The position numbers and the translations under genes are program-made. The notes beneath the pieces were generated by a model. It searched no databases, was not told where the DNA came from, and saw nothing but the letters and a program-made list of their open reading frames with translations. DNA of 63,199 nucleotides, counting the filler, from Kipferlia bialata (lineage: Eukaryota), in assembly GCA_003568945.1 (NCBI GenBank). It is 4 parts of 4 records of this genome, joined end to end, with 100 filler letters (N's around TTAATTAATTAA, not from the genome) between each part and the next. Parts side by side here need not be neighbours in the genome. Positions count along the whole stretch, not along the records: positions 61,305 to 63,199 come from BDIP01000272.1; 3 more parts are not named here. One strand, written 5' to 3'. Shown piece by piece: positions 12,501-63,199 of this stretch (position 1 is its first letter; each line of letters opens with the position of its first letter).

Positions 12501-12607
12501 GGCCATGGGCATGGCCTAGAGTGGGAGGGAGTATACTCAAGTTCTTACTGATAGAGGGAGGGAGATAATGTTATCATAGATAGGGCCATGGGCATGGCCT
12601 GGGGTAA

Positions 12608-12643
<36 letters not shown>

Positions 12644-12698
12644 AGAGAGAGATTGATTGATACGGCAAGGGTCATGGGCATGGCCTGGTATTGAGAAG

Positions 12699-12729
<31 letters not shown>

Positions 12730-13040: not shown

Positions 13041-13165
13041 GAGGGAGGGGGGGAGGCGAAGAGGGGGGGGGGGGGGGGGGGGGGGGGACGTAAGATTACA
13101 ACTCAACAACCACAAGAGCTAGACACATATACATATGAACATCCTTATTACACCATACTTCCACA

Positions 13166-17028: not shown

Positions 17029-17095
17029 TGGGGGTGAGGGGAGGGGGAGGGGGAGGGGGGGGGGGGGAGGGGGCATACACACCTCATGAACGATG

Positions 17096-17195
17096 NNNNN
17101 NNNNNNNNNNNNNNNNNNNNNNNNNNNNNNNNNNNNNNNTTAATTAATTAANNNNNNNNNNNNNNNNNNNNNNNNNNNNNNNNNNNNNNNNNNNN
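17096..17195. other. Artificial contig-joining linker (N44-TTAATTAATTAA-N44)
   Basis: Exactly 100 nt. The central 12-mer has stops in all six frames, and the same structure occurs three times in the window. Confidence 0.95.
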
Positions 17196-18707: not shown

Positions 18708-18740
<33 letters not shown>

Positions 18741-18887
18741 ACCTTCCCCCTGTGGCCATCGAGGCGGCACCGGAGCTGGGTCAGCCTTGACCTCTCAACC
18801 TGTCTGGGGGTGGGTATGAGGTCACACATAATTATAATGATCATAATCATAATGGTGGTATGAGCTGTCACCCAACCCCGTCCCAGT

Positions 18888-18928
<41 letters not shown>

Positions 18929-20538
18929 CATATATACATACATATATATGTATGGCATCAGTCCAATGACCCCCCCCCACCTGGGTATCTGCCACCCACA
19001 GACTGTCTTGTCAAAGGACCCCGAGAACAGGAAGGACTCCTGGGGGGTAAGACATCATATACAATACAGGTACCATACATATACAATGTCTATACTGGAT
19101 ACTGATACTGAGCCAGAGACCAGGAAGGACTCCTGGGGGTGGGGGGCACAACACCGGTATATACAGAATGATGCTAGAACATAGACGACCCGCCCCCTTC
19201 CCGCACCCACCTTTTCATCAAACAGCAGGGACCGCACAGAGGCAGTGTGGCCACACTGGGACAGCTGCTTGCCGGCCTCCTTGAGCCCCAACTCGGCCAC
19301 CTGGGGTCAGACAGACAGATGTGGCATTTGATATCACTGACAGCAATATATATATATATATATATATATATGGAAGACGGACAGAGCACGACAACAACAC
19401 AGAGGTATAGAACACTCCGACCTGGCTGAATGACCGGTAGTCCTCTCCCAGCACCAGGACGGGGATGGTGCGGCCCATGGTGCCGAGGAACACCCGCCTG
19501 CCCTACAGATAAGGGGAGGGAAGGGGGGGGGGGGATACACAGCCATACATACCTGCTGCTCGTACTCAAAGGTGTGGACCACGGCGTCTGTCACCCTGCC
19601 GCCCCCCAGCGACCTCTCCTCCTGGTCGTACAGGAACAGGTTCTTGTCCTTGCCTACAGACACCACAACGTCATGGTTCTCGGGCAAAATCATAATCTAG
19701 GGTTCAGACATAATCTAGGGTTCAATATGTTATAGTATCAGACATGCACTCCATATGTGATAAGGCAGAGAGACTGAGCGAGTCGGGATATAGTCACTAT
19801 AGACAACACATAACAAATGGGAGATGACAGCTGCACGGAGACGAACCTTAGTCACGGCCTTCTTGTGAGCATCGATCTGCCCAGCCAGCTTGAGACAGGA
19901 CCCTTGGTCCCCTGGAGGTAGGAGGGAGAGTCACACTGACGCCAAAGCACAACACACGCACCTACGGAGAGCAGCAGAATCATGCCGTTGCTGAGGCCTG
20001 CAATCACCCTGCGTCTGGACCCATCGAAGGCAAGGGCGGTGACCTATATATGGGCAAGGGGGGGAGACATGCCACACCGGTACCAATACAACGGCGAGTG
20101 CCTACTACCGCCACGCACCTTGCTGTTGCAGTGGAAGGTGGTGGCCTCCTTCCACTGCTCATAGGAGTCATCCAGCGCATGGAACACGTGGACCTGGAAT
20201 GAGAGGGAAGAGGGAGCGGTCCTAATTGGAGGAATGGGTGAGCGAAAGTGACCCACATAAGAACTGTACAACAGATCCCATTTCCCAACTACATAACCAG
20301 TCCCTCACAGGTCCGACCGGTCGGTATACTATATATCCAATATAAAAATCAATCCCTGACGCAAGGGCGGCGCTCTCCATAAAATGGGACCAGCCGAGAC
20401 CCCCACCTTCTTGTCATTGCTGGCACTGAAGATCAGGCGCTCCTCGGGGTAGAACGTCACAGCGTTGATGGAGTCGGTGTGGCCCCGCAGGCTCACAACA
20501 CAGTCGGGAGAAGTCCTGTCAGACTCAGCAGTTGCCAT
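17613..20538 (-). CDS. WD40-repeat protein (~7 blades), multi-exon
   Basis: Exons read LRGHTDSINAVTF...IFSASNDKKVHVF, VTALAFD, DAHKKAVTKI, VSVGKDKNLFLYD, GHTASVRSLLFD...LFSGSFDKTVCGW, LDGHRGKVKGLAWD...STGDDRTVIVWD and AHEDWV...TIKLWKW. Confidence 0.88.
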
Positions 20539-37600: not shown

Positions 37601-40600
37601 AGGGGTCGAGAGCAGGGCAGAGGACGGGGAGGCAGTCACAAGGGTGGACACAGCCAGGGAGTCCGTCTCGATAGAGGCCACGTCGACGTCCCCACCAGTG
37701 GAAACGGAAAGAGCAGCAAGAGAAAGTGTTGAAGAGACACCTGTCGTGGCGACAGATAGTACCGTTGAACCAGACGCGTCATCAACCGTGAGCCCAACCC
37801 CGTTGGTTGAGATGGACACGGGCCTGTCCACTGTGAGACGGGACGGGGTGTCGCTCGACGCAGACAGAGTCACGTCCGACACCTTGACAGTGGAATCAGC
37901 CACCAGAGGGGACGTCACTCCAAGAATCCCATCCGAAATCAGCTCCAGTGTGTCACCATCTTCAAGCGCAGCAATAACGACGTCGTTATTGCCGTCAAAG
38001 CGAGAGGCTGAAAGACGCTGGACTGGAGACGAAGGAACAGTGATGTCCTTGACAACAAACTCGCCAGCGTTCATCACGCCCTCAGTCTGGAGTGAGCAGA
38101 ATGAGACACAACCAAAGGATGAAGAAATAGAATCCAGACATACAAACCTTGAACTCTGAGGATTCAATCTGCCCCAGGAATTCAGCTGTGCCCGATACAC
38201 TGAGCCCAGCCTCGAGAACAGACTCCTCGTAGAAGGACACCTCAGTCACGCCAGAACTGTCCCCAACCTCTACAACAACAGAGGGTGAGCCGGGGACTGT
38301 ACTATCCACAACGGTGAGAAGGACATCTGTGTCCAGGCCCACCTGAACTGGGCCAGTCTTGAGGACGGAGACATCGCCACTATCCATAGCCTTGGACGCA
38401 GAGGAGACGGAGGTATTATCATTGATGGCCAGAGTGTCGGTGGATAGGTAGTTGCTACCAGTAACAGCAACATTGGAATCAAACTCGAAAGGAGTTGAGG
38501 TCGTTGTAAACGAGGCAGTGGCGGAAGCTGTCGACACAGCGAGAACAGAGTCAACCTGGAGGTCGGGCGCATCCACCTCACCACCAACGACCAGGTTGCC
38601 CACTGCGACATCTCCCACAAGAGAGATCTCGGCAGCTGACACAACAACTCCCCCGTCCACAAAAGAGTCACTGGAGCCAGATTGCAGAACCAGACCGTTG
38701 CTGACCTTTGGAGACAAAGCCGCGGGGTTCAGATCATCTGTGTCTACAAGGGAGAGGGCTCCGCCAACGGAGATGGCACCGACCTCAACGGCGTCTGCAT
38801 CTAGGGACACGACCTCCATGTCACTCTGCACCAGCACAGACCCCTCGGCACACCCAGAGGAGGAGCACTCGGCAGAGAGAATCACAACGCCACTCTGGAT
38901 ATCACCCATTCCGGCCTGAGGTGAACAGGATGAGACGACACGGGGGGGGTTAACCAAAACTGAATCACCCTATAAACTATTAGAACGTACCACAAGCTCG
39001 ATCGCTCCCCCGGTACTGCCAACATCGGTTGTGGTCTGACCCATAACATGCACCAGAGTGGCTGGACCGGAGGAGATGCTTATTCGACTAATCTCTGTTC
39101 CAGACACAGTGGTATCTGCCCCAACAGTGACACCAATGGAAGACAGTGACGACATGGCAAGACTGTCGTCAGAAAATGAAGTGGGTAGTGGATAATGAGT
39201 AGACCACCAACGATGACCGAAGAACATACCTGCCCTCTACGGTGACCGAAGCCGGTAATGCTGCAGTTCCAACAGTGGCGGCAGATACGTCAGCAAGAGC
39301 TGCCACCAGGTCAGTATCGACCTCAATGTCGGAGTCCAACACAAGGCTTGACACATCAAGAGCATCAGAGGAATCAGAAAGAGCGCCAAGAGAAACAGAC
39401 ACGCTGGCAGACGTGGTACCGACGTTGTACTCGCCGACATATGTCGCCACTGGTAGCAAAAGGTTACCCGTGGGTGAGAGGACCATGTCATCAGCCGGGG
39501 CGAGGGAGACGTTGGCCGAGGAGGTGATGCGGTCAGTTGTGGCCTTGGTGTTTGCTACAGCAGACGTACTGATGAGGGCACCAGTGAGATTGGTGTCCTT
39601 GAATAGTGCCCCGTCTGAATCCACAACAATGGCTGTTGCATGCGTAATGGATACAGAGACATCAACGTCTGACAGGACTCCTTCCTCGACTACTAAAGGA
39701 ACTACAACACTAGCAACTCCCGCTGATTGACATCCGGCACAAGTAGGGTTGCCAAGAACAACGTCCCCGTCAGAACATCCGCTACCGGTGCAAGACCCTC
39801 CGGAAAAGACAACTGCCCCACCAGAGTCGGTACCAACTCCAGCAGATACCTCCACCTCACCGCCAACACCAAGATTACGGTCACCACCAACAAAGGAGGT
39901 ATCACGTCCGAGACTCTCTCCATATGCCAGGCCACTGTCAGAGAGAAGAATGCCGGCGGTACTCAGGTACTCTGAGTTCCCAACCTCCACACTCCGCAAC
40001 TCCAAAGTTCCTGTCACAGTCAAAGCCCCAGTTGAAACAGTGGCAGCACCGCTGTCAACCACAACCTCAACGGCAGCGAGACTGTCACTGTGGGAAACAA
40101 CAAGCTCATCATCTGTAAGGGATATCGCTCCAGTGCTGATCACACCAGCATCCAACGGAAGTGCAGGCACGTCAGCAGAGGATATGGAGACGGGGTCGGA
40201 TACTGATATAGCGCCAGCAGCTGAGCCGACAGTAAACCCTGAAGAGAACTCGATGTCAAGCTGTTCTCCGTGTGACAAGACCGAGAGAGAGTCTCCTAGC
40301 ACATGGGCAGTGCTAGACTTGTAATGGTGGCTGTCACCAGGTGAGGCCAGGGAGACATCTCCTGAGGAATGGGACACCGTCAGAACAGCAGCAGAGTCAT
40401 CTACGATCTCTACGACGATGGCCTCTAGCGTAGCACTAGCCTCGAGTGTGTCACTGCCCAACCCACTGGATACAGACAGGCCCTCGGTAGCAAGAGCAAG
40501 GGACTCAAGTACAATGGTACCAGACGCACACCCAGCCGTAGTGCACTCAGCTGTGACCACCACGTCTCCCGACTGTCCCATGGCCTCCATGCTCTGTCCG

Positions 40601-43600
40601 GCACTCACATAGAGGTCTCCCCCGGTCACACCAAGGCCAGAGGTGATGTCCAGAGATCCTCCCTTGTGTGTGGACGACCTCTGAGCAGCGACAAGAAGAC
40701 CAACAGTGGAAGAACCCATATCTGCATCGGATACGCCAATGGCGTAGTCTGACGACAACGAGACCGCGTCTACAGAAATGGAAGTGGAAACCTCGACGGA
40801 GTCTGCAACCAGAGCACTGCCTGCATCACCAACAACGACGAGGGGGGCAGAGAGAACAATCTCACTCACGTCAGCAATAAGAGACGTGTTCAGGGTTGGC
40901 GTCTCAATATCAGTGGAAGCCATCGACACAGCACTGGTGGTCCCGTCCACCTCTACTGACTCAGAGGTGGCCCCAACGGAAGTTACCCCAGAGTCGTCGA
41001 TGACGATAGTTGCAGTCCCTCCTGGTGACTGTGTCACACCCACAGCACCACTCGCCTCCAGAGTGATGCAAACTGAGTCCGTGAACGCAACGGCACTTGA
41101 AGAAGAACCCTGGATTGAGTCTCCCAGAGTCGTAGCGACCTCAAGCTCCCCATCCACAGACACAGTACCATCGGAGGAGACGATGCTGAGCGAAGACCCG
41201 TTCAATGTGGCGTGGGTAGTGTAAGTGAGAGAGACCTCCGGTGACCCTGCCTCAGTGACAATCAACTCACTGGAAGACAACAGAGTGGCATTCAATGTGT
41301 CAGATGTCACAGCACCCGTGAACTCTGCAGCTGCAGCCTCCACAGCACTCTCGATGGCAACATCACCCCCTGTAAATGAAACAGAGCCTGCAGCAAGACC
41401 GGAGTAGGTGAGAAGGAGTGGGACACCACCCTCAATCTGCACATCTCCTCCCTGGGTGTTTCCCTCTCCTCCTGTGAGAATAATGTTCCCGCCTCCGGAA
41501 GCGGCATCCAAACCGCTAACAGTGAAGGTATCGTCATCTGAGTCCGTGGCGTGGTAGAGAGTGGCCTCGAGCACACGGACGTCTCCGAATGCGGCAGTGG
41601 TGGCGACCAGAGACCCACTGTCCTCGAAGGAGAGAGAGGAGACACTTGTGTCCTCCAGTGTCAAAGCATCCGCAAACACCACAGAGTGACTCGAGGATGA
41701 CGGAGAGACGGAGAGGGTGTCATCTCCCGAGGAGTAACTGATCCCATACCCGTTAGAGGAGTCAGAGACGTTGACAACCATTGCCATGTGTGATCCAGAG
41801 ACCTCCACACTTCCTGTGTTATCGACGGAGTCGAGAGTGGCAGGGCCTGCAACCTCTAGAGCTCCCTCAATGATCACATCACCGGCGGCATCCACATCAC
41901 TCTCTGCAATCACAGTTCCCGATACATAGCCAGAGCTACACTCAGGACACTCGGCCGACAGAATGACATCTCCCACCTGGCCAACCCCCTCCTGTGACCC
42001 ACCCATGAGGACGGCGTCGGCACCAGTGATCTCACCTGATTGTGAGATGTCATAGGGGAACACCATAGTGAGACTGATTGGTATGACAAAGAGACCGACG
42101 TACCTGCTCCACCCCTGAGGATCACATCGCCGGCTGGGATGAGACCACTGGCTGAGCCCTGGCCCTGTATGACATAGGCCACAGGAGAGGCAGAGGCGAT
42201 GGGCGTGATTCCACCGGCTCCGAGAGTGGTAGTCTCAACCGTGAAGGTGTCGGTGACAATACCCCCGGTGAGGTGGATATCGGTAGATGCCACAGCCCCT
42301 GTTACGGAGAGTGTGTCAGCTGTGAGAGTGGAAGCAGCGACGCCGCTGGTAGAGGCTTCCAGTGAGTTTCCAGAAGATCCTGGAACCACAAGGGAACCTG
42401 TGGCTACAGTATCCAGAGCACCTAAACCAGCAACAGAGGCATCCGCCAGCAGGTACGCAGAGTCCAGCTCTGTCTGGGGTGAGTGTGGGGCCCTGAAGGA
42501 TGTACAGGACGTTATCAATCATACATACGACACCAACCTCAGACATGAATGACACCACTCCAGTGGACCCACTCCCAGATCCAGCGGCAACAATCAGAGA
42601 GCCACCACTGTTAGTTCCATCGCCTCCTAACAAATACACTGAGCCCCCATCAGAAGACCCAGTCACAGAGAGAGACTCACTGCCCGCGGGAGAGACAGAT
42701 GCACTTTCAATGGAGTCAACGGTCAGAGACTGTACCATGGCATCACCAGCGATATGCAAGACTCCAAGACTGGTCTCGCCGGACACCGCGAGGGAGCCTG
42801 GAATGGATACACCGGTGGATGCCACTTCAGTGACCGACGATCCATCCACTACCAGGGAGGCACCGGTGTCTGCCCAAAATTCTACTTGCGATGTCTCAAT
42901 GGAGAATGAGGTGGGGGAAGAGACTATCGAGGTCTCAAGTCCAACGCCTAAACTTGCTCCGACCTCAACTGACTGTGCTGCTGCAAGGCTTGAGCCTGTA
43001 ACACTCTCGGCGGCAGCAACGTCGGCGGTAGCGCTCCCTGCGGTCAAGGAGGACCCATCTCCCACAGTGACATCAGTGGCGACAAAGAGGATGTCTGCGG
43101 TCCCAGAGGAAGGCCCGATGACGCCGCTGGAGATGGAGAGGGCCTGGGAGAGGGGGCCAGACACAGCAGCAGACGTAGCATCGACAGAGTCCAGAGAGAC
43201 AGTGGAGGAAGAAAGAGCTCCAGCTGTCAGGCCTCCGTCGACCTCTAACTCCTCATGGACAATAACAGTCCCAGAGGTGCCTGTGCCTGGGGTGAAGGGA
43301 TACCAGTGGAGGCCAAATAGAAATGACACCGTACAAAACCAACTACCCAGGCACACATACACTCACCATCTCCTGCCACATCTAGTGTGATACTGCCTCT
43401 GCTACCGGTGCGACCGGTATACTCTCCAGGGGAGAGATACACAGTGCCTCCCATGCTGTATCCGGCGCCACCCTCCATGGATGCTGTGCCTCCAACCTGC
43501 CCCTCTGTGTCCGTGCCCTCCACCCCGATGGAGAGAGGCACGGGCGACCCAGACGACGTGGCGGAGAGACTCACGGTACTCTGAGTCACGGTGATGGCTC

Positions 43601-46307: not shown

Positions 46308-46407
46308 NNNNNNNNNNNNNNNNNNNNNNNNNNNNNNNNNNNNNNNNNNNNTTAATTAATTAANNNNNNNNNNNNNNNNNNNNNNNNNNNNNNNNNNNNN
46401 NNNNNNN
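46308..46407. other. Artificial contig-joining linker (N44-TTAATTAATTAA-N44)
   Basis: Same 100-nt six-frame-stop spacer. Confidence 0.95.
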
Positions 46408-46459: not shown

Positions 46460-46659
46460 GAGTGAGAGAGAGATAGAGAAGTACAGAAACAAATGTGTAT
46501 AATACCTCAATGCAAGGACGGATGGGGGGGGGGAGGGAAGAAAAGAGATATACAACATACCTCAATGCCAGGATGGCCGGTCTGCAGCAGAAGAGACCCT
46601 CTTTATACATATATATATATATATATACTATATATGTATATGTATGTATATCTATCTAT

Positions 46660-49600
46660 ATATACCTCAGTGCCAGGATGGCTGGTCTGCAGCAGAAGAG
46701 ACCTAGTAACAGTACAGCACCAGGCAGAATGACAGCTAGGGTAAGTACATTATATGGGTGCATATACATATGTATATGCATATATGCATATATCATATAT
46801 ATATACCTACATATATATATATATACACACACCTGACTGTCTCTGGGGCATCTCTGCCATGCAGTACAGGCCTTGTCTAATATACACATACATATATACA
46901 ACTATATAGTATATATATATGTGTGTATGTATGTAAATATATACACACCTGACTGTCTCTGGGGCATGTCTGCCATGCAGTACAGGCCATGCTTAAAGGC
47001 ACCACAAGGGTATGCGACAGAGGGTGCAGGGCCCACTGTATATGATGCAATACACCCTATAACAGGCACCTCACTACCACTCTCAGTCACTCCAAGGGGG
47101 AGAGAGAGCAGGTATTCCATGCTCTCTGTATCAGTATCAAGAGCTAGTGATGTGTCAAGGTCTGAGAGGGTGGATAGAGCTAGGGCGTCCTCTCTCGCCC
47201 ACCAGAACTGGGCTAGACCCTCAGAAGAAGAGGGCGTTCTAGCTACAGCACCACCTGTACACATGTACAAAGAGTCACTGAGGCTACTTGGTAGAGGTGT
47301 GCAGCTTGTTCCGAACACCCCACCCATGTTGTGCAAGGGGGATAGTGCCACAGTGGTTGGGTTGTGGGGGGTGGAAGAGAGGAAGGTGCCAGGGGTGAGG
47401 GAGTTGCCATACACATCCACACCACCTAGCAGCAACATGCCACTCCCACTGCCTGGGGGGTAAGGTTAGAGTAGTATAGTTACATATAATGAAACAATGC
47501 ACATCATACACTATTTAGTGTCAACATGCCACTCCCACTGTCTAGGGGGTCAGACAGCAGTAATATTATCACAATATACTATATAAATGTTGTAATATAC
47601 TATATATACATATATATCTAATAGTAGACATCTAGCAGCATTCCACTACCACTGATGTTGGTGGGGTATATGGAATAGGAATGCATATTAGAATCCCTAC
47701 CTTGCACAGCATGCGTACTGGCCACCTCCTCACTATATAACAATCAATTCATATATACTTATATATGTATAATATCTACTATATATAGATATATACATAA
47801 TGTACTCTTCATCTAACCTTGCCCTGCACTCACACTGACCACCTCCTCACACTAAACATAATATACATATATATATACATACATATATACATTCCATATG
47901 TACCTTGTATAGCCTGTGCGCTAGCCACCTCCTCACTGTCAGATGCACTCTGTGTGGTGACACTGTTATGCCCGACACCCACACCATGCAAGAGAGCCAT
48001 GGAGGAGACACTATCACTGCTAGAGACACTCTCGTTGCTCCAGAGGGTCTCCGCAGCCTCCTCCCCGTACACTACGCGAGTTAGGGTGGATGTATAGGTA
48101 GTGACACCATCTACAGTGGATGATGTGTGGGAGAGGATGTGTGCAGACCCGGCAGAGGAAGTGGTTGCAACCACTACTCCCTCTCTGTCCTCAGAGTCTA
48201 GGGACACGCCCTGATATCAGTATCAGTATATACACATAATCTAATGCTGTAAGAGTAGCAACAATGATAATTACTACTATATACCTCCTCCCACACTGCT
48301 GTGGTGTCTGTTTCACTCAGTGTGAGCATAAGTATATAGATGAATAGGTACGTATACTTATATACAATCTCATATACCTCTTCCCACCCAGCTGTGGTGT
48401 CTGTGTCACTCAGTGTCAGGTAGTGCACTATGTTATCGGATAGCACAGTGGACACACCACCTGTAGTGAGATGAGATGCAAAGATTAATTAATGCATATT
48501 AATACTACATAATAGAAATATAGAGAACTTTGTTATCGGACAGCACAGTGGCAACACCACCTGAAGTCATGAATTGAACATAACATATCATTATATGTAT
48601 ATGTATTAGCTAATGTGTGAAATATAGTGCACTGTGTTATTGGATAGCACAGTGGCCACACAACCTAGGGTCAGATATAGAACGCTAGACGTATACATAT
48701 CTAAATAACTATGAGTAATAGAGTACATTCTACCTAGTATGTACTGTGACATGGAGCAGATAGGTAGTATATAGTACTGGTACCAGTCTGATGAAAGAAT
48801 GTGTGTGTTCACATACATACACACACATATACAATATACCTAGTGTGTACTGTGACATGGAGCAATTAGGCAGTGTATGTTATAGTACCTGCATTCATCT
48901 ACATACATATCTATAGTATATCTACACACACACATATATACAAGACTCTATATATATAACTATAGTGTACCTAGTGTGTACTGCGACATGGAGCACACAG
49001 GCAGTGTATAGTACTTGGTCTCTAATACCTTCATTCATAAACCTACACATTTATAAATGTGTGTATATATATAGTGTACCTAGTGTGTACTGAGACATGG
49101 AGCACACAGGCAGGTGGGAGTAGGTGGGGTCGGCAGAAGGGGCCACAGTCAGAAGAGCAGTGTCGCCTGGAAGTGAGATCAGAAAAATCTGGGACTCCTT
49201 GAGAATAGTTAAAACGTGCTACATACCTGTTATGGACAGCGTCACAATGAATGTCCTGTCTGTTGACGCTGTCCCAATAAAAATATGTATATAGGCGAAA
49301 ATATATACTGTACAAATACCTGTCACAGATAGTGTCACACTCACTGCCCTGTCTGATGGCTCTGTTCCCTCTGTACCTGAGGCATACTCATGGGCAGACA
49401 GACCAGTAGAGCTATGGTAAGGTTCACATATGCATATATTCACATAAGAGTAATATGTAAATTTATGTGCAGACAGACCAGTGGAGCTATAGTCAGATAT
49501 ACACACTATTGTATCAAACTCATATTTATTATGCATATGTGTCAAATGCATAACTCATGGGCAGACAGACCAGTGGACCATAGAGTTAGATATAAACAAT

Positions 49601-50683
49601 GTATAAGAATATTTGCAGATATATAGACATTAATACTCTACATACATGTATACATTTACTACAAATGACACGTACCCATCTGATAGGTGTAGATAGGCCC
49701 CACCCCCTGACGCCATACATGCACTGGTGCGAAGCAGGGTGTCTGAAGTCAGATATATACATATACTCATTTGTACACTATAAATCTGTGTATGTATAGA
49801 CAGTAACATATATGAGTATATATACATGCACTGGTGCCCAACAGGGTGTCTGAGGTTAGTAATATATATATATATGTACATAAGTATACATAAATACTTA
49901 TATGAGGCCAGACAGGCACTGGCCGTAGAAGAGTGTCTGAGGCAAGGTACCGAGAAGAGTTATAATGTACACATGCACTGATGTGATTATGGTATATGTA
50001 CACTCATAGGCCAGACAGGCAATGGTGCGCAACAGTGTTAATAGGGTAAGATAGTTCATATACTCCGCAGTCACATATACTAATACTCAATATCTACACC
50101 AAAGAACACACATTTACATTGATACAGTACCTGACTCCAGAGCACTACTGATGTCTGTGTATGTCTACAGTTCTGTCATATATATTCATACTCTATACTT
50201 GCATAAAAAATATATGCCATATGCATCTGGAGTATACTAATACTATTATGTACTATATACCTGCATCTAGGGCACTGTCAATGTCTGTGTCTGTCTGCAT
50301 GTCTGTCAGTTCAACCACTCCTCTGGTGCTGTTATAGGAGAGGGTGTACCTAGTATGAGACATAGAGAGAGTAACAAGCAGTGAGACATAAGGATGGAGA
50401 GAGAGAGAGAGAGATAGATAGTTCAACCACTCCTCTGGTGCTATTACAGGAGAGGGTATATCTGGTGTAAGAGGGAGGGAGAGAGAGAGGGAGGGAGAGA
50501 GGGAGAGAGAGGCAGAGAGAGGGGGGGGAGACAGAGAGAGAGATGTGGAGGGAAAGGAAGGGTCTACTTACACTAGAGACCACTCTACAACTCAATCATA
50601 TGTAAATATACTATACACTCACACTATGGGTTCTGCCTCTGTCCAGTCTGACATGGATGATATATGTATATATTATAATACAT

Positions 50684-50722
<39 letters not shown>

Positions 50723-52000
50723 ATACGTACACTATCGGTTCTGCCTCTGTCCAGTCTGACATGTCATGACATACATATATAATTGAGTACATATAGTCTT
50801 TAAACATACTCATATATACTATACTCATGTTTACTCACACTGTGGGTTCTGCCTCTGTCCAGTCTGCCATGGATGATGCACCATATGTGGTGGGGGTGCC
50901 TGGGGTCAGTATGGCATGTACATGAAGTCCATAGGGTCAAAATACTATTTATAGTGTGTTCCATGTTTGTACCTGGTGACTCCAGTCCCCCTATGACTAC
51001 TAGGTAGATACGGGCATACAGTGGCACACATACACTATGGGTGTATACAATTCATATTCATACAAGTATATACCGTGTATATATACATACCTGGTGCCTC
51101 TAGTCCACCGATGACTACTAGGTAGTGGGTGCCATCCACAGTGGCAACGGTAGATGAATGACCTATCCTAGAGGGTAAGAAGGGAGAGGGACAGACAGAC
51201 AGAGAGAGAAAGAAACCATCAACAGTGGCAACAGCTGAGGAGTGGCCTATTCTATGGAATTAGAGACAGAGGGGGAGAGGGAGGGAGATACCAACAGTGA
51301 CAACAGCAGATGAATGGCCTATTCTAGAGGGTAAGAAGGGAGAGAGAGAGACAGAGAGAGAAATAGAAGAGAGAGAGAGAGAGAGAAAGAGAAGCCATCA
51401 AGGGTGGCAACGGCTGATGAGTGGCCTACTCTATGGAATAAGAAGGGGGAAGGTGGAGACAGAGAGAGAGAGGTGGAGAAAGGGAGAGAGAGAGAAGTGA
51501 TCAACAGCTGAGGAGTGGTATATTCTATAGAGTAGGAAAGAGAGGGGGAGGGAGAGAGAGGGAGAGAGCAGGAGCTCACGAGTGTCTGATAAGTAAGCGG
51601 AGAGACGAAGAGGTAAAGGTGGTAGAGAGAGACCATAAAGGGAGGTAATAACTGAGGAGTGTCCATATAGGTTTCAAAAGTATTGAGCGTCCTATCCCCA
51701 AAGATTAGGACAGAGTGGGAAAAACATATGAAAAGCTACCTTGGTACTAGTGTATGCACTGCCTCCATCAGTCCCTCTGACATTGCCATGATATTATACA
51801 GATACTGTATAAGTATATATATATATACATCAATGAAATTATACATAAGTATATATATATATATACATTAATGGAATGAATGATTACCTGGGCACAAGTG
51901 TGTGCACGCTATCCATCAGTCCCTCTGACACTGCAGAGACATGACCAGCCAGGAGCAACACGCACAGACATAGACAGAGAGACCACATGGAAGGTAGCAT
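46660..52000 (-). CDS. Type I membrane protein with kelch-like beta-propeller ectodomain (3' end lost at contig end), multi-exon
   Basis: Signal peptide MLPSMWSLCLCLCVLLLAGHVSA. Kelch-like motifs IGHSSTVATVDGTHYLVVIGG, MLLLGGVD and LYMCTGG. TM-like AVILPGAVLLLGLFCC near 46700-46740. Confidence 0.6.
51130..51660 (-). repeat. Degenerate splice-acceptor echo array (~5 copies) in the kelch-like gene
   Basis: Units resembling CAGTGGCAAC(A/G)GCTGA(G/T)GAGTGGCCTATTCTA are separated by purine tracts. Confidence 0.7.
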
Positions 52001-53015: not shown

Positions 53016-56000
53016 ATGAGGAGAAACATGAGGAGATGCTCGAGTGCCCAGCACAACATGTATGCCACTGCCTGTGCCACTCTGCCCTTGGATCAGTATG
53101 GGGTCACAGTCACATTCACAGGTAGTATACATGAATCATAATATATATATATGGATATATCATATATATCATATTATCGAATATGTATATAATATGTCAT
53201 ATATATCATATACTGCCTGTGCCATTCTGCCCTTGGATCAGTATGGCACCACAGTCACATTCACAGGTACTATATATATATATATGTATATATACATATA
53301 TACCATATATCACCATACTGCCTGTGCCACTCTGCCCTTGGATCAGTATGGTATCACANNNNNNNNNNNNNNNNNNNNNNNNNNNNNNNNNNNNNNNNNN
53401 NNNNNNNNNNNNNNNNNNNNNNNNNNNNNNNNNNNNNNNNNNNNNNNNNNNGTATATATATATATATCATATATCACCATACTGCCTGTGCCACTCTGCC
53501 CTTGGACCAGTATGGGGTCACAGTCACATTCACAGAGTATAGGGTAAATTTAGTATATATACTCCAACTCTTGGTCATTCATACATGTCAGGTAGAGGAT
53601 TCACAAGTTTCAAGTATGTCTATAACCCACTGTACTTATGTATTCTATTGTCTATTAATTCACAGTCTCATTCACAGGCATTTTACAGGTATCTTATACT
53701 CTATGTTTATGTAGCCCTGAAGCAGAAATCAAGTCTATGTAGTATACACATCAATAGTACTTATATGCATATATGCATATATACTATTCCATAAATGATA
53801 TAGTCTTATTCCAGGGGGTACCATCGATATGGACAACGAGATTGACTCTGATGCAGAGAGGGTGTTTCTGAGACCATGCTATGAGAGGATCATTAATGTA
53901 CGAATAGTATGATGTTAATATGTATCATTATGTATGGCCGGATCATTAATGTATGTATAATATGTATCGATTATGCACTAATCTCTGGTTAGTCATTATT
54001 ATAGTGTCTACTCATGGATAGGCCCTGATCCGCACCAGTCACATTGGCCCACAGATGCAGCCACCCACTGGCAAGCATCGGAAGGCATTTGTACTAGGGA
54101 CACCAGGTAATGGTGCTGATGCTAAGTCTATTACTTTCTGTAACTATATCCTCCATTCAGCCATACGTGTGCTATTATTGTCTCATCAGTGTGTCACATA
54201 CGTAAGTACTACATATATATCCTCTTACAAATATTGTGCTAGGGACCCCAGGTGGTCACTACAAAAGCTGAGTCATATATATATATAGTCATAGTCTTGT
54301 TTGTGCACTGATACTGTCATCATACATGTATACAGTTGGTTAATCATACACTATCTCTTGTATAATGTGTATAGTATACAGGGCCAGGTAGTCAGTGTTG
54401 ATACTAGACCTTGTGCTAAACTTCACCCATATACACCCCTTGTCTACTATGTGTTCAATCATCATGATTATATTCTTATTGTACATATATCTACAATATA
54501 TATATATATGTGTGACATATATAGATGTATTCTTTTGCGGACACTGACCCCTAGGAACCGGCAAGACTGTCTGCCGCAACGTTGCCTGTGCCGCCCTGGT
54601 CCAACAGTGCATATCACACCATGCATCAGCACACATCATCTTCCAAAAGGCCAGTGGGGCGTCGAGACTCGAGACTCCAGTAGTGCATGTCTCAGCTGGT
54701 GGAGAGGTGTCTGGTTCCCTAGTTGGGGCCTCTGAGGAGATTCTGGGGCCTATGGTAGCTAAGTGGCAGAGGCAGGGTGACCTAGTCGTGTCTCTGATAG
54801 ACGTGTCAGAGGGGAGGTACAGACGGAATGTAACCAAGGTAACACTAAGAGTGTCTGATTACTTCTAATAGTCCCAGTATTTCTCTTGGGGTAATCTCTC
54901 TTTCAAATAATCCGAATACTATTTAGCGTAATCTTTCTAACACAGACCAAGGTGGAGTGGTACTTCTCCCACCCAGACGAGAGTCTCATCAAGAACAAGG
55001 ACAGGTTGAAGTCCCACCACAACAACGACATGTGGATGCCACTCTGGACCCTTAAGGAGCTGCAGACAGCGAGGGAGGGTCTATTCCCCTTTCAGGCAGG
55101 AGACTCAGTTGTTGATCCCGTACCTGCACATACAGACGAGAGGGAGGAGGGGGTGGGAGAGGTGGAGCTGAGAGGTACCGGGGTGCAGATGAGTGTCGCT
55201 GATGAGGACACCAGCGAGAGAGAGAGTGGGTGCTGTGGTGAGGTGGATTGGGAGGCAGGCTCTAAGGCAGCTGGCTACTCTTCCCCTAGTCAGCTCCACA
55301 GACTGAGGGGTTCATATGCACTGGTGATGGATGGGGACTATGTCAAGTCTAGCTACGCTGAGCCAGTTGGGATAACAGCATCTGAACTGGTGGCACACAG
55401 GTAAGAGTGTAGTAGTTAGTATACTCAGTATATATATTACTACTGCATATATATATAGTGTTTATCAATATGTTGGGGTGACAGCATCTGAACTGGTATC
55501 ACACAGGTAAGGATGTGATAGTATACTTAGTATATGTATTACTCTTGTAATAGTATATAGTGTTTATCAATATGTTGGGATGACAGCATCGGAACTGGTG
55601 GTACACAGGTACGATATATACATGTATACATAAGTATCTATACTATATATTTTGTATTACCTGGAAGGATTTCGATTTCGCTAATTCTCAGGTTTGGTCA
55701 CTTTGGTGGGAATGCCCGTGCCTGTCTGGAGGGACCAGAGAGCACTCTCGAGTTCCTACACGACGACATATACAGTGGGGTGGACTTGAGTAGGATCATC
55801 ACCCACTCAGCACACAAGCCTCCGAAGATGGTGGCGTGTCGGTACTGTCACTCATTCTTCCACTTCAACCCTAAGAGAGGACTGAGTGCACCATCTTACT
55901 GCTGGGCCACACCCTTTATACGCAGTCAAGTGTGTCTGGCTGCAATGTTGGTGGATGACAGTGGGAGTGAGAGTGAGAGCGAGAGTGATGATGTAGTGGT

Positions 56001-56333: not shown

Positions 56334-59300
56334 TCAGTGCAGCACTGTGAGGAGACAGATCTCGTTCCTGGAGGGGAACCTCTGCTGGGGGCCCCAGCAC
56401 CTGCAGGGTTAGTATACATTAGCCATACACACATATGAGTATAATACAAACACATACACAAATGTCTATATATGCGAACAAATATACACTCACCCTGCCC
56501 CACTAGTCACCACTGCATGCACAATGTTATTACATATACGCACTGATGTACACTATATATATACATATCTGTATAGTATCCACTCACCCTGCCCCACTAG
56601 TCACCACTGCATGCATCGGGTGGTCTCTCCTATCAGACTCGACCAGAGAGTGGCCTGGGGTTAGCTACTGTATACAACTTCAAGACTAGATCTATAATAA
56701 CAGCCCCAGCCAACAGTTGCCCATTAGGTATTGCCAGTAACACTCATGAATAGCAATACTCAACCAGAGATACAACTGGGCATAGATATCAATATGACAT
56801 GACTATATGATCCGCACTGGGGATACATACATACACTAACATGCAACGAACTGCTTGTAGACAATTAGAAATACATGTAAATACATGTATACATGTGCAA
56901 ACAGTACCATGCCTACACATATACATAATTACTTCACAAAGTAAATGTCTGTATTAATTCTAACCTGCAAAGAACTGCTTGTAGACGATCCTCACTGCGA
57001 TGTTGAATGGCCAGACCTGGCCTAGGTGTGAGGGGAGGTTTAGGGGGCAAATAGTCAGAAGCAGCAGATATAAATAGTATGTTATTACATGCGTATATGT
57101 GTCAAGAAAGTGTTGCTAATTGGGTAGAAGGGTGAAGAGGGGGAGAGAGAGATATAGCAGTATGAGTGAGAGGGGTATATATATATATATATATATATAT
57201 AGATCTATTACCTGTGTGTGTGTGTCCCTGATGCATAACAGTATGAAAGTGAGTAATACATAGTCTACATACATAAGCATTTACCTGCGTGTGTGTGTCC
57301 ACTGCACACAATGTCTGCACCGGCATCTGCTGCCTGGGCCATCGTACGTCTGAAACGTCAGATAGCTATACAAATATAGAAGTGAGAGAAGCATTCACAT
57401 TGTATGAATATAGTACCTATCTGGGTTGTGACATAGCAGCAGTCTGGGCCTGTATGTATATACATATAAATATAGTGTATAGTACGGTATATATATACAC
57501 TATACCTGTCTGGGTTGTGGCATAGCAGCAGTCTGGGTCTGTCAGATGGGGCACAGGACAGAGTGCCCCATATATATATATATATATATAGTGTATATAT
57601 ATATATATATTAAGAGTGTATAGTACTGTATACCTATCTGGGTTGTGACATAACAGCAGCCTAGGTCTGTCACATGGGGCAGAGGACAGGGTGCCCTATA
57701 TACATATATATATATATTAATGGTGCATAGTACTATATCCTGTATATACCTATCTGGGTTGTGGCATAGCAGCAGTCTGGGCCTGTCACATGGGGCAGAG
57801 GACAGGGTGCCCTCAATGTCACACACTAGCCTCTTCCTGAATATCAATATACATGCTGCAGTATTACTGTATATATTATATTGTACTGACTATATAATAC
57901 ATTTGGTGCCCTCGATGTCACAGACAAGTCTCTTCCTGATATTCAGTATACATGCTATACATATACACACATTAATACGGTATAAGTAGTATGTTGTATT
58001 ACTAAATATATAATATATTTGGTGCCCTCAATGTCACAGACCAGTCTCCTCCTGTTATATCAATATACATGCCACAGTATCACTGTATATATATTATATT
58101 GTACTGTATATATAGTAGTATACTGTACTGCATATATAATAGGGTGCCCTCAATGTCACACACAAGCATATTCCTATATAGATGAGTATATGATTTGCAC
58201 ACATTGATATATAAACACATAACTAATAAATGTATATATGTACCTAGTAGTTGGCTGGGCGGGACTGATCACACCCCGCTGCTTGACCTGTGTTGACCCG
58301 GCTGGACTGTTCGAGACTGACTGGTATCCCTCCACAACGTCTGTCTCTGTCTCTGTCTGGCTAGTCTCTGGTTGGCCAAATGCTGTGTCGTGGGCGCCAC
58401 AGATGACAATGGGGAGGGGGCCGGCCTGGTGTCAATAAATATATATATATATATATACCTTTAGGTATACATTATTATATATATATATGGTATTATCGAT
58501 GACAATGGGGAGGGGGCCGGCCTGGTGTTAGTTGATGTCTATATATGCACTCATTCAATATATAAATAAATATGGTGCCCCAGATGACTACTGGGAGAGG
58601 ACCGGCCAAATGACAAATGTATACAATAATACATGTATATATGTGTGTGGGTGGGTGGGTGGAGGAATTTATACAATAGTATATATAATATATATAATAT
58701 ATACAATATATGACTGTGTACTACATACTACTATTGATTATACATATATATACATACCTTTGGGGTTGAGTCTGCCCACTCATTCTCCAGCACATTCATT
58801 ATATAACTTGATAGTATATATTATCATATATACATATACATATTTATAGATGTATCATTGTATATATATATACCTTTGGGGTTGAGTCTGCCCACTCATT
58901 CTCTAGGACATGCATATCATAACTTGAGAGTATATACCATATATATACATGTATACATACATACCTTTGGGGTTGAGTCTGCCCACTCATTCTCTAGGAC
59001 ATGCATCCTGCCGGCATTCTTGAGGGTGTTGATCATAGCCCTATCATAAGTCTTTAACGAGAGAGATAGAGTGTGTGTGTGTGAAAGAGAGAGACGAGAG
59101 AAGAGAGAGAGAATGCATCCTGCCAGCATTCTTAAGGGTGTAAATCATTACCCTATCATAAGAGAGAGAGAGAGAGAAAAAAATAGAGATAAAACTCATG
59201 GCAAATGCAGTAATACCTTGGCTTGTCAAATGCCTCGTGGTTCCCAGTGACACCAAAGAGAGGTGCCTCAATCCTGGTGAGCTCTGCTATTCTGATGGGT

Positions 59301-61058
59301 TAGAGTTAAGAATGATGATATGATAAATGGATTGGATATTTAGAAACAATTAAGTCTGCTATTCTAATGGGTTAGAGTTAGTCAAACTCATTACTAATAC
59401 ATAAGAAACAATTATGTTAGCACTCAGCTAGAAAGAGAGATCCTTTGACAATAGATAAGTCGATAAATAGATAGAGAGAGAGAGAGAGAGAAAGATACCT
59501 GGACACGACCGAGGGAACAGGGCCACCGTCTGACATGTCACCTGAAGAGTGAGGGTATATATATCACTGTCGTATATGGTATATACTATGTATATACCTG
59601 AGAATACCACTACATACACATATTCATATGTTGTTGTGTATATACCCATACCTGCGTACACCACTGCATCTGCCTTGTGACTGTTCTGACGATATAAACA
59701 TTGAACAGGAATATACATCAAGAGAATATATATACATATACTTGGAATTACCTGCGAATACCACTGCATCTGCCTTGAGACCGTTCAGGGCATCTACAGT
59801 CTGTCTGAGGGTTAGACACATTCCCATTTATATATATATATATGTATATATATAACTGCATACACACATCTGAAGGTCAGTATCCAATAATGCAAATATA
59901 TGTATATAGGGAGAGACCGTTCAGGGCATCCACAGTCTGTCTGAGAGTTAGTGTCATGTACTAGATATATATATAATGTATGTAGACTACATATAGAGGG
60001 AGACCCAGACACATAGTGTGTTCAGTGCAGCAGCAAGTTACATGGCAGTTAGATGTACCACACACTATACATAAGAACAAAAATCCTCATAAAATATAAT
60101 ACAGACATGAGGAAAGAGATACTCAAATAATACAATACCATCTCCTCCTATAATACAATACCATCTCCCTACCTGACCACTCTCATTGGCACCAGTCCAC
60201 ACCAGAGAGTGTTTAATACCACAGTATACGGCATATATTGTGTACATGTATTGGTATATAAAAATTATATACATGTATATATATACCTGACCACTCTCAT
60301 TGGCACCAATCCACACCAGTGCGTATCTGAGAACAGAGCAACGGAGGTGGTCTGCACAGGACCGTCTCCAGTCTAGGAGTTAGTATACTATATGTATATA
60401 TATACATCTAAACACAAGGTCACGATATAATAATAGTATGTATAATATTCCATATATATCAATGGAGGTGGTCTGGACTGGTCCCTCTCCAGTCTGGGGG
60501 TAAGTACAGCTGAAGAATGACCCTTCTGACAGCAATATATCTTTACCTATACCCTATAAACACTATTTATATACCTTCCTATCTGTCAGGTCCACCGTGA
60601 CCCTTCTGACAGCAATATCTATATACCTATATAATAATATTACTATATACTCTATATACAATACACACCTTCCTATACTATATACTCTATATACAATGCA
60701 TACCTTTCTGTCTGTCAGGTCCACTGTGACCCTTCTGACAGCCACTGGCAGCTGGGGCATGATGTACATCACAGCCTGAGAATAAGGGGCTAGAGAGAAA
60801 GACAGAGAGATGAGGTACACTACAACCTGAGAATGAAATGTAAGATACGGAAAAATACATCTATATACAGCGTATACAAGAATACAGTATATGAGGGAAA
60901 TATATGATGTATCATGACAACCTGACATCAAGGGGCCAGAGAGAGAGAGAGAGAGAGAGACGGTGAACATGACAACCTGTTTGTATGGCGCTAGAGAGAG
61001 AGAGAGACATTCATCATTACCTGCAAGAATCTGCTCAATGATAGTGACACAAAGGAGC
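56334..61058 (-). CDS. Calcineurin-like metallophosphoesterase, TMPPE/YkuE family (5' end lost at contig end), multi-exon
   Basis: Motifs ALFSDTH, ADAVVFAGDMSDG, GVTGNHE, HVLENE, LLLCHNPD, SGHTHAGQVWPF and VTSGAGCWGPQQRFPSRNEI. Stop at 56334-56336. Confidence 0.88.
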
Positions 61059-61204: not shown

Positions 61205-61304
61205 NNNNNNNNNNNNNNNNNNNNNNNNNNNNNNNNNNNNNNNNNNNNTTAATTAATTAANNNNNNNNNNNNNNNNNNNNNNNNNNNNNNNNNNNNNNNN
61301 NNNN
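61205..61304. other. Artificial contig-joining linker (N44-TTAATTAATTAA-N44)
   Basis: Same 100-nt six-frame-stop spacer. Confidence 0.95.
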
Positions 61305-61543
61305 CCCCCCCTAATTGCCCCTTACCCCCCCCCCCCCCCCTCCCTCCCTCTATATATAGAGTACTGTCTTATGATACTGATATCCCCTCACGCTAGGTCC
61401 CCTTCAGCCACATGGTTGGGTCAGGGTATATATATTGTATATATATAGTATAGTATACATACAATTGTATAGTATAGTATACGATAGTATACTATACTAT
61501 AGTATACACACAAGTCACTACACATTCAATTCATTTACCCCAG

Positions 61544-61942
61544 GTCCCCTTCAGCCACATGGTTGGGTCAGAGGTGTACTCCCACGAGGTCAAGAAGGTA
61601 CGGAGTGCCATATGGTGTAGTAATATATACTCTATATAGTATATAGTATATATGTGTATACTATAGTGGCTTGGTCGTTCTGTGTTCTCTACATTTTCTC
61701 AGAATGGTGGAAAGACCACTGATGGTAGGCTGAGGTTATCCTTTGCTACTAGTAGTGTTACTAATATATCAATACTAATATGAGGTTCTGGCAGTTGAAC
61801 AGAGGCATCAGTATTATTGTAGTATGTATGTATATTACAGTACTGATGTCAGGCTGAGGTGATCAAGAGTGCCTTCCGCCGTTCCATCGGTCTCAGGATC
61901 AAGGAGCAGAAGGAGGTGTACGAGGGTGAGTGTTATATAGTG

Positions 61943-61979
<37 letters not shown>

Positions 61980-63155
61980 CAGTGAAAGATCAAGGAGCAG
62001 AAGGAGGTGTACAACGGTGGGTGTCAGGGCATACATGTGTGGAGTGCAGAGTGTAGGAGTTGTGTTGTGGCCTCTGTCTACGAATTGTTACTGCCATCCC
62101 CCCAATGTGTTATCTGTACATATATATGTAACTATACATAACCCCAGGTGAGGTTGTCAAGGTGCTCCCTGTCGAGGCAGACAACCCAACAGGGGGGTAT
62201 GGACGCGTCATCTCCCACGTGCTCCTGACTCTGCAGGTATGGGGGTTAGACACAGTGATAAATATCTATTATTGGAGTGATATATATATATTGAAATTTA
62301 TATATATATCTCACCCCCGGACCAAGAAGGGCCAGAAGGATCCTCCCTCTCTCTCTCCCTCTCTCTCTCTATATATATATATCTATATATATATATATAT
62401 CTATGTATGTATATACTCATTCCAGACCAAGAAGGGCCAGAAGGAGCTCAAGCTGGACCCAGCCATCCACCAGCAGCTGGAGAAGGAGCAGGTATAGAGT
62501 GTATATGTATAGTATAGTATATGCTAATGAATATATCATGTATATATGCTATGTAAAATACATCCACCAGCAGCTGGAGAAGGAGCAGGTATATATATGT
62601 ATATATATAGTATAGTATATAAGTTAATGAATATGTCATGTATATATGTTAAGTAAATTTACATCTACCAGCAGCTGGAGAAGGAGCAGGTATATATGTA
62701 TATATATAGTATGGTATATGAGTTAATGAATATGTCATGTATGTATGTTATGTAAAATTCATCCCCCAGCAGCTGGAGAAGGGCAGGTATATACATCCTA
62801 GTATGTATATATGCACAAATACAAACATGTAAGTATATGTATATACACACACTCACCCCAGGTCAAGCAGGGCGATGTCATCTACATCGAGGCCACCTCT
62901 GGTTCTCTCTCTCTCTCTCTGTATATAATAGTATATATATACACACTCACCCCCCAGGTCAAGCAGGGTGATGTCATCTACATCGAGGCCACATCTGGTT
63001 CTCTCTCTCTCTCTATATATATATAATAGTATATACATATATATACACTCACCCCCCAGGTCAAGCAGGGCGATGTCATCTACATCGAGGCCACCTCCGG
63101 TGCTGTCAAGAGGGTGGGCAGGAGTGACAGATACGCCACAGAGTTCGACCTAGAG
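61544..63155 (+). CDS. RUVBL1: RuvB-like 1 (pontin/Rvb1) AAA+ ATPase, internal fragment
   Basis: Exons read [18 protein letters not shown] / [25 protein letters not shown] / [29 protein letters not shown] / [22 protein letters not shown] / [32 protein letters not shown]. Confidence 0.95.
62465..63100 (+). repeat. Donor echo (4 copies) and acceptor echo (3 copies) arrays in RUVBL1
   Basis: CATCCACCAGCAGCTGGAGAAGGAGCAGGTATA occurs at ~62465, 62561, 62662 and 62760. CACTCACCCC(C)AGGTCAAGCAGGG(C/T)GATGTCATCTACATCGAGGCCAC occurs at ~62850, 62945 and 63046. Confidence 0.9.
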
Positions 63156-63199
63156 GTACTCATATTCATTAGCATACATACTATATATATATATGTATA

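Follow-up and report, generated by a model that had tools for sequence, protein, structure and literature searches.

Exon-end copies with splice signals in introns of Kipferlia bialata

Repeats that cross an exon–intron border have been described at single loci and in recently gained introns. According to the available text of the relevant reports, intron 7 of human F7 contains a 37-base-pair (bp) minisatellite whose first unit lies across the exon 7–intron border, a locus at which oriented scanning was shown (PMC1557585), and neo-introns of Daphnia pulex are ascribed to repair of staggered breaks with insertion of DNA, leaving an exon-terminal direct repeat at the far end of the insert, with repeated break-repair events proposed to lengthen introns (PMC4202315). 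Here we analyze a pattern of this general kind in 63,199 nucleotides (nt) of Kipferlia bialata DNA, four joined parts of assembly GCA_003568945.1 that we call the window; positions 61,305–63,199, from BDIP01000272.1, carry exons of RUVBL1 (TIP49). In many genes of the window, the end of an exon and the adjacent splice signal recur within the neighboring intron, after the exon in the case of donor sites and before it in the case of acceptor sites. We call each such copy an echo. A preliminary description of this DNA had reported echoes at RUVBL1 and several other genes, and had regarded many introns as unexpected for a relative of Giardia; the intron richness of K. bialata is, however, on record, as the available text of its genome paper describes a free-living fornicate with 49.4% G+C and 124,912 introns (PMC5874029).

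Echoes across the window and at RUVBL1

Echo families were detected through shared non-repetitive words, after which every cluster was inspected and its junction coordinates fixed. The curated set comprises 48 junction families (28 donor, 20 acceptor) with 71 echoes; 33 families have a single echo, 15 have two to four, and the affected junctions occupy about 36 kilobases (kb). All 48 families include the true exon end and splice site in the first unit. Neighboring copies are spaced at a median of 102 nt (interquartile range 93–116; 50 of 71 within 85–120), with an exon-derived part of median length 29 nt (range 9–64) and a median spacer of 69 nt between copies. As the preliminary description had noted, the decoys mostly keep their splice dinucleotides: all 42 donor echoes have GT and 26 of the 29 acceptor echoes have AG, 68 of 71 overall, and the splice-site scores of echoes and true sites are equal (median difference −0.44 bits). 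Repetition in the window is chiefly local and direct. Among non-low-complexity repeated words, 1025 pairs are direct and within 700 nt, versus 17 distant direct and 36 inverted pairs, and neither a dispersed family nor terminal repeats nor shared spacer sequence was found in the window. Nearest-neighbor repeat distances fall between 90 and 119 nt in 453 of 802 cases; 96 extended repeat segments form 41 clusters, all in 1–19.1 kb and 46.5–63.2 kb; and each of the 11 arrays of period 95–116 found by Tandem Repeats Finder overlaps a curated junction family. A chance origin of the echoes is excluded.

Polarity was also scored without curation. Exon maps outside RUVBL1 came from the third version of a self-trained gene finder, which reproduced the RNA-supported RUVBL1 boundaries exactly. 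Predicted exons of at least 40 nt were kept, echo pieces were removed, and a copy was recorded when at least 21 of the 28 nt at an exon end matched. Around 109 exons in the TA-rich parts, donor-end copies were found downstream in 31 cases and upstream in 1, and acceptor-end copies upstream in 22 and downstream in 1, giving 53 on the proper intron side versus 2 on the wrong side (P ~4e-14). Echoes thus occur at 53 of 218 exon ends in these parts, about one in four, versus none of 148 ends of 74 predicted exons in the 19.7–45.4-kb region, where no copy was found on any side at either end (P ~1e-13). When the same 109 exons were tiled in full, with a complexity filter and a search distance of 450 nt, 64 of 74 copy groups reached the adjacent exon end, compared with a fraction of 0.197 for random placement (P ~7e-35); the other 10 were mis-predicted (GA)n-rich ‘exons’, boundary offsets or single marginal windows. 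The 53:2 ratio and the 64 of 74 exon-end contacts together argue that echoes have a true polarity and are enriched at junctions, as had been claimed. By itself, polarity is expected of any adjacent duplication that does not disrupt the gene. These results confirm that echoes are real and more widespread than first reported; every region previously named (those assigned to pepP, RFK, the cyclodeaminase, WD40, kelch-like, NTPase and metallophosphoesterase genes) contains them.

Only genes with introns rich in (TA)n and (GA)n carry echoes. The earlier association with microsatellite tracts held up: (TA)4+ or (GA/TC)4+ tracts are present in 47 of 71 echo units, versus 6 (TA)4+ and 3 (GA/TC)4+ tracts in the 72 predicted introns of the echo-free 19.7–45.4-kb region, which have a median length of 73 nt, complex sequence, and normal GT and CTNAC..AG signals. 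This region (19700–45400, ~26 kb) holds long minus-strand reading frames without a Pfam match, one of them of 1021 amino acids at 39172–42234. A Pfam scan of 40 long reading frames gave no match above threshold. Echo-rich and echo-free genes lie on one contig (17196–46307, between N runs); a second kind of gene and intron shares a contig with the first.

The RUVBL1 locus shows both classes of echo. Its five plus-strand exons, 378 nt in total, lie at 61544–61597 (supported by a spliced contig and a gene-finder boundary), 61853–61925 (the contig, the gene finder and an in-frame Pfam TIP49 match), 62148–62236 (the contig and the gene finder), 62426–62491 (the contig and the repeat scan) and 63060–63155 (sequence repeats and reading frame). 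As originally noticed, the 28-nt tail of exon 62426–62491 and its GT recur three more times at ~100-bp spacing (62491–62788; pieces 62561–62588, 62662–62689 and 62759–62786, at offsets of 97, 198 and 295 from the exon end), with 0 differences at 62561–62590, 1 at 62662–62691, and 2 substitutions and a 1-nt deletion at 62759–62788; this array is a whole-unit tandem of ~99 nt. Also as described, the acceptor signal and the first 42 nt of exon 63060–63155 occur twice upstream (62862–63060), at 62862 and 62958 (198 and 102 nt upstream; pieces 62862–62909 and 62958–63005), in units of 96–102 nt that contain (TC)n. Four further echoes at this locus had been missed. Acceptor-end copies precede exon start 61544 (61397–61544; piece 61397–61431, offset 147, TAG kept), exon start 61853 (61729–61853; piece 61729–61740, offset 124) and exon start 62426 (62321–62426; piece 62321–62340, offset 105), the last with CGG in place of CAG, so that AG is lost, and with (TC)n(TA)n after the piece; a donor-end copy follows exon end 61925 (61925–62018; copy at 61988–62018, piece 61988–62016 plus GT, offset 91), with (GA)n before it.

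Two sequencing runs of one sample bear on this locus. The DNA run, X1, contains 96% of sampled window words and is possibly the assembly's own sample, hence not independent of it; its contigs run across both echoes and true copies with uniform depth, ~376–458 (record 1, 61326–61927; record 6, 62668–62885). The second run, X2, is presumed to be RNA; its contig is spliced. X2 record 9, a 1331-nt contig, matches 61544–61597, 61853–61925, 62148–62236 and 62426–62491 and then an acceptor copy (coordinates are given after shifting ambiguous letters), joining 61597 to 61853, 61925 to 62148, 62236 to 62426, and 62491 to the acceptor copy. The skipped stretches are bounded by GT and AG, which identifies the contig as a copy of spliced RNA. 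At 61925 and 62491 the donor used is the first one, and at 61544, 61853 and 62426 the acceptor used is the last; the contig therefore bears out the proposed first-donor/last-acceptor rule at all five resolvable junctions, skipping the echoes at 61397, 61729, 61988 and 62321 and the three donor echoes after 62491. Thus, the main RNA form skips the echoes, with rare use and minor isoforms lying beyond a contig's resolution. The contig comparison covers 61305–63012; reading frame and homology suggest that RNA uses acceptor 63060 rather than 62862. The cell could tolerate decoys by picking the site that is continuous with the full exon, that is, the first donor and the last acceptor, and degradation of mis-spliced RNA may also contribute. 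Acceptors throughout the window (for example, 63045–63059 and 62413–62425) place a branch-like CTNAC 2–6 nt before a C-rich YAG, in agreement with the fused branch/acceptor layout described, in the available text, for the metamonads Giardia, Spironucleus and Trichomonas (PMC6679479).

Structure and possible origins of echoes

The preliminary description proposed that local tandem duplication grows introns and that the copies decay with distance. Each claim fits some arrays only. In junction-anchored gapped alignments, 8 of the 42 donor echoes and 17 of the 29 acceptor echoes were more similar on the intron side than an unrelated-junction control, and free local alignment detected homology on that side for 16 of the 71 echoes. 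Within the 33 families with a single echo, the control was exceeded by 1 of the 19 donors and 10 of the 14 acceptors; nine of these ten acceptors score 10–17, which can be read as ~10–20 matched nt of the fused branch and acceptor signal, whereas a score of 31 was obtained for the tenth (51168). The repeat in 32 of these 33 families, then, consists of the exon end and at most ~20 nt of splice signal. The exon part can be fully identical (24/24 at 12115, 28/28 at 56494, 28/28 at 61397 and 24/24 at 58522) around spacers that are complex and unrelated, and these spacers therefore did not simply diverge or decay. For 52 of 70 spacers, neither strand contains matching sequence within 1.2 kb; the other 18 are array units or (GA)n. 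Copying of spacers from nearby sequence was considered and rejected, as only these two classes matched. Whole-unit homology is evident in the RUVBL1 donor and acceptor arrays and at 2220, 55401, 53096, 51168 and 57837. Because most echoes are junction repeats around an unrelated spacer, these ~100-nt arrays, the RUVBL1 donors included, look like secondary amplifications of a junction repeat–unrelated spacer–junction repeat unit. Divergence grows with distance in just 2 of the 15 multi-echo families, is reversed in 6 and is mixed in 7, and the term ‘decaying’ fits those two arrays alone.

Donor-end copies are found 72–203 nt inside the intron, with GT and additional intron sequence after them; past every donor echo, a further intron segment of at least ~48 nt remains. 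Neither a micro-exon nor a complete-intron cassette, in which a spacer would end in an acceptor or an acceptor echo would be followed by a donor, is general. At donors, AT-rich sequence begins at about position +2; at acceptors it is confined to the region upstream of the C-rich branch/acceptor signal. This difference fits the longer shared stretch at acceptors.

The account we favor, tentatively and at somewhat less than an even chance, is that the echoes, short direct repeats of ~20–75 nt of exon end and signal, arose through repeated, junction-anchored break repair that left ~60–70 nt of AT-rich, unrelated filler between copies. The junction would be spanned by a staggered break or by two nicks, and both break ends would be filled in and joined around filler DNA, giving the order exon tail and signal, filler, exon tail and signal, old intron. 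In a variant, the break would lie in the AT-rich intron, and its repair would involve a brief template switch to the neighboring exon end, with copying stopping once it reaches AT-rich sequence able to pair with the other side of the break. Such a switch would account for the sharing of no more than 2–10 intron letters at donor echoes and of the whole C-rich signal at acceptor echoes. Each event would add ~100 bases to the intron together with an intact decoy splice site, and some units could later be amplified head to tail in ~100-base steps, as in the RUVBL1 donor array. A broader proposal, which we think rather unlikely, is that an active mutational process directed at splice junctions builds introns in ~100-base modules, perhaps in connection with transcription, with splicing or with fragile (TA)n tracts abutting the junction. 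If so, each module would bring a fresh exon-end copy with a working splice signal, long AT-rich introns would be stacks of modules, and the spliceosome would have to choose strictly the site attached to the full exon.

Several observations count against junction-anchored repair or limit the data behind it. Repeats of 20–75 nt and fillers of ~60–70 nt far exceed both the 4–12-bp Daphnia footprints and usual end-joining filler. The slope of spacing on exon-part length is 0.58 ± 0.25, where a filler of independent length would give 1, and inspection of the exon-side breakpoints by eye found neither microhomology nor a common motif. No known process accounts for a breakpoint within ~12 nt of the junction or for the even spacing, and that spacing, like the length of the repeats and the source of the filler, is left unexplained by both versions of break repair. 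All counts come from one 63-kb window; detection by words finds too few of the repeats that lie wholly inside AT-rich introns, which overstates junction enrichment; and the gene finder mis-called two RUVBL1 echo pieces as exons (61667–61756 and 62862–62930), calls that would break the frame.

Other origins fit parts of the data. Plain head-to-tail duplication of ~100-bp units, each an exon end and ~70 nt of intron whose intron part decays while selection removes duplications that do not cross exactly one junction, matches the arrays with whole-unit homology listed above, and it would yield both polarity and exon-end contact, as introns of ~70–150 nt mean that most tolerated 100-bp duplications cross a junction. 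We nevertheless consider it improbable. Thirty-two of 33 single-echo families share no more than ~20 nt on the intron side even though the exon part is often 100% identical over 24–42 nt; the spacers are complex and unrelated rather than shifted microsatellite; exon-part identity is no lower in single-echo families than in whole-unit arrays; and the 148 neighboring exon ends are free of echoes despite long exons and 45–110-nt introns that present a similar target. An assembly artefact, in which divergent haplotypes or collapsed repeats were set in tandem by the assembler, could be suspected from a 93-N gap inside one array (53359–53451), from the pairs of 44-N runs elsewhere and from the possible identity of X1 with the assembly's own sample. 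This is the least credible explanation and highly improbable: copies differ by substitutions, families have up to four echoes, exon-part length varies from 9 to 64 nt rather than being fixed by a word size, separately built X1 contigs bridge echo and true copies at even rather than half depth, and the RNA contig confirms the flanking exons.

The coincidence of copy boundaries with RNA-level boundaries raises a third idea, that splicing intermediates or pre-mRNA fragments ending at splice sites were reverse-transcribed, or served as repair templates, and were inserted in the intron. Reverse transcription of a lariat intermediate would stop at the branch site, and acceptor echoes often start near the predicted branch site. 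Such an origin has little chance of being correct, however, as GT is present in every one of the 42 donor echoes and several have 5–10 intron letters in common with the true site (for example, GTTAG and GTGAGTG) that a free 5′ exon would lack, no downstream-exon sequence follows donor echoes, and neither a reverse transcriptase nor a retroelement was observed in the window. Echoes might instead be kept for a function, either as recursive splice points through which a spliceosome adapted to short introns could remove long ones in ~100-nt steps or as decoys that tune splicing. Retention of splice dinucleotides in 68 of 71 echoes exceeds the 86.5% expected from divergence (P ~0.01), echo sites score as well as true sites, the unit length equals the usual intron length in the window (medians 73–110), and most exon tails end in AG, so that tail and GT form an AG|GT point. 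Yet many echo tails have no branch-like motif (the purine-rich RUVBL1 tail is an example), GT follows only ~6 of 29 acceptor echoes, and neither function would require 20–64 nt of exon identity; we give this possibility only a slight chance. Junction-anchored break repair thus remains the account we prefer.

Echoes and genes elsewhere in the window

The remaining curated families, defined from repeat clusters and curated junctions, are on the minus strand unless stated otherwise, and offsets are distances from the true junction. In the first part of the window, single acceptor-end echoes lie at 326–421 (exon 5′ end 326, offset 95) and 1543–1642 (5′ end 1543, offset 99) and single donor-end echoes at 1003–1088 (exon 3′ end 1088, offset 85) and, in the aminopeptidase P gene, 2064–2153 (3′ end 2153, offset 89). 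Two acceptor-end echoes follow at 2219–2423 (5′ end 2219, offsets 98 and 204), the inner unit being a whole-unit copy, and one at 4605–4747 on the plus strand (exon start 4747, offset 142). The riboflavin kinase gene has three donor-end echoes at 7257–7525 (3′ end 7525, offsets 93, 171 and 268); single donor-end and acceptor-end echoes are found at 7805–7917 (3′ end 7917, offset 112) and 8256–8349 (5′ end 8256, offset 93), respectively. In the cyclodeaminase gene, one donor-end echo occupies 11372–11447 (3′ end 11447, offset 75) and another lies within 12020–12210 (piece 12115–12141, offset 95, the 24/24 copy with an unrelated spacer noted above). By eye, a more diverged copy of the exon tail with GT is visible 93 nt beyond this curated echo, at 12020–12043, with a complete intron tail of 64 nt after it; the count of older echoes is probably too low. 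Beyond it come a donor-end echo at 12354–12452 (3′ end 12452, offset 98), four acceptor-end echoes at 12515–12862 (5′ end 12515, offsets 83, 169, 238 and 347) with (GA)n between the copies, two donor-end echoes at 18567–18743 (3′ end 18743, offsets 81 and 176) and an acceptor-end echo at 19039–19132 (5′ end 19039, offset 93).

Past the echo-free region, single donor-end echoes occur at 46561–46666 (offset 105), 46833–46949 (offset 116), 47701–47904 (offset 203) and 48285–48378 (offset 93, junction reset by 1 nt), with an acceptor-end echo at 47452–47541 (offset 89). Pairs of acceptor-end echoes at 48460–48664 (offsets 100 and 204) and 49411–49578 (offsets 75 and 167, the outer echo without AG) flank three donor-end echoes at 48734–49080 (offsets 109, 240 and 346, junction reset to 49080), and a single acceptor-end echo lies at 49742–49849 (offset 107). 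The donor-end echo at 50343–50455 (offset 112), with (GA)n before it, is on the plus strand, an assignment that is less certain. Donor-end echoes recur at 50623–50839 (two, offsets 108 and 216), 50973–51091 (one, offset 118) and 51740–51888 (one, offset 148). Between the last two is a (GA)n-rich acceptor-end array at 51167–51560, with one echo curated at offset 156 and more copies visible. On the plus strand are three donor-end echoes at 53095–53509 (offsets 145, 250 and 414) and two at 55400–55608 (offsets 106 and 208). The 93-N gap at 53359–53451 lies within the first of these arrays, which suggests that echo arrays break assemblies.

Further along, single donor-end echoes are present at 56494–56588 (offset 94; the 28/28 copy, followed by GTGAGTG and with an unrelated spacer) and 56841–56965 (offset 124). 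The 87-nt exon 57750–57836 has three echoes on each side, donor-end at 57417–57750 (offsets 116, 244 and 333, with exon-derived parts of at most 64 nt) and acceptor-end at 57836–58173 (offsets 99, 216 and 337). An acceptor-end echo at 58425–58521 (offset 96), two donor-end echoes at 58758–58965 (offsets 91 and 207) and an acceptor-end echo at 59291–59363 (offset 72), which is mostly splice signal, come next. Exon 59752–59804 has one echo at each end, donor-end at 59652–59752 (offset 100) and acceptor-end at 59804–59940 (offset 136), and the series closes with single donor-end echoes at 60173–60287 (offset 114) and 60575–60704 (offset 129).

The gene names given earlier fared unevenly. Pfam supports TIP49/RUVBL1 on the plus strand and aminopeptidase P (pepP), riboflavin kinase (RFK) and ornithine cyclodeaminase on the minus strand; support for the WD40 and kelch assignments is weak, and single-exon Pfam scans did not confirm the NTPase and metallophosphoesterase names. 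A protein search with the riboflavin kinase frame gave no scored relative of comparable length. The window also contains homopolymer-like tracts at 14126–14208 (~83 nt, C-rich), 13063–13087 (25 G) and 17030–17073 (44 nt, G-rich). Stretches at 5181–5401 and 51170–51650 are (GA)n-rich with periods of 45–66 nt and appear exon-like under the composition model. The 100-letter joins between parts, at 17096–17195, 46308–46407 and 61205–61304, each consist of 44 N, 12 letters and 44 N. Because the gene finder made false exons from echo pieces, existing annotations may carry the same error, and annotations of such genomes may hold frame-breaking errors at echo sites.

Comparison with known systems

The lengthening of introns and the choice that the spliceosome makes between identical sites are unsettled problems, addressed so far mainly at individual loci. 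In the echo-rich parts of the window, roughly one exon end in four, spread over many genes, has a natural decoy whose splice signal is intact. Echo-rich genes beside echo-free ones would provide a dense natural data set for the rules of donor and acceptor choice in a lineage with a reduced spliceosome, and the same data set would also test break-repair models of intron growth. A literature search found no description of the pattern for fornicates. In the available text of the Kipferlia genome paper (PMC5874029), the string ‘duplicat’ is absent, no relevant use of ‘repeat’ occurs, and such duplications go unmentioned.

Among processes that duplicate or insert DNA, CST-guided fill-in by Pol alpha-primase likewise yields duplications of tens of bases during break repair, but those duplications, as presented in the available text, are adjacent, whereas ~60–70 nt of unrelated DNA separates the copies in the window (PMC8355091). 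Introner elements, intron-making transposons, also add intron DNA and can obtain a splice site from the target duplication (PMC9860276); in contrast to what the available text describes for them, the repeats seen here greatly exceed transposon target duplications in length. The Rogers model, in which introns are gained when AGGT-containing sequence is duplicated in tandem, is similar in that local duplication generates duplicate splice sites, one copy of which becomes intronic (PMC3265369, PMC4974935, PMC2891723). In that model, to the extent of the available text, the new intron is itself the duplicated exon between two AGGT sites, whereas echoes lie inside older introns and are followed by a complete short intron tail. 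The intron ends that the model predicts, with the head of the downstream exon first and the tail of the upstream exon last, were not found.

The likeness to F7 is closer. There, too, the exon end and donor are repeated downstream, and according to the available text the pseudo-sites are intact yet silent, with the most upstream donor used (PMC1557585). Echo families share the placement of the true end in the first unit, and the spliced contig leaves pseudo-sites unused at 61925 and 62491, where 1 and 3 echoes are skipped, a preference for the site continuous with a full exon that parallels the oriented scanning at F7; head-to-tail full homology of the F7 type is found in some multi-copy arrays only and not overall. 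Moreover, F7 is one locus with identical head-to-tail units, whereas echoes occur at 48 junctions in ~36 kb, involve acceptors too, and are mostly single copies past unrelated DNA. Neo-introns of Daphnia, on the available account, share the architecture of an exon-terminal direct repeat flanking unrelated DNA, which the echoes display. The Daphnia repeats are 4–12 bp long and mark new introns; the repeats in Kipferlia are ~20–75 nt, include 2–20 nt of splice signal, and extend existing introns at ~100-nt spacing.

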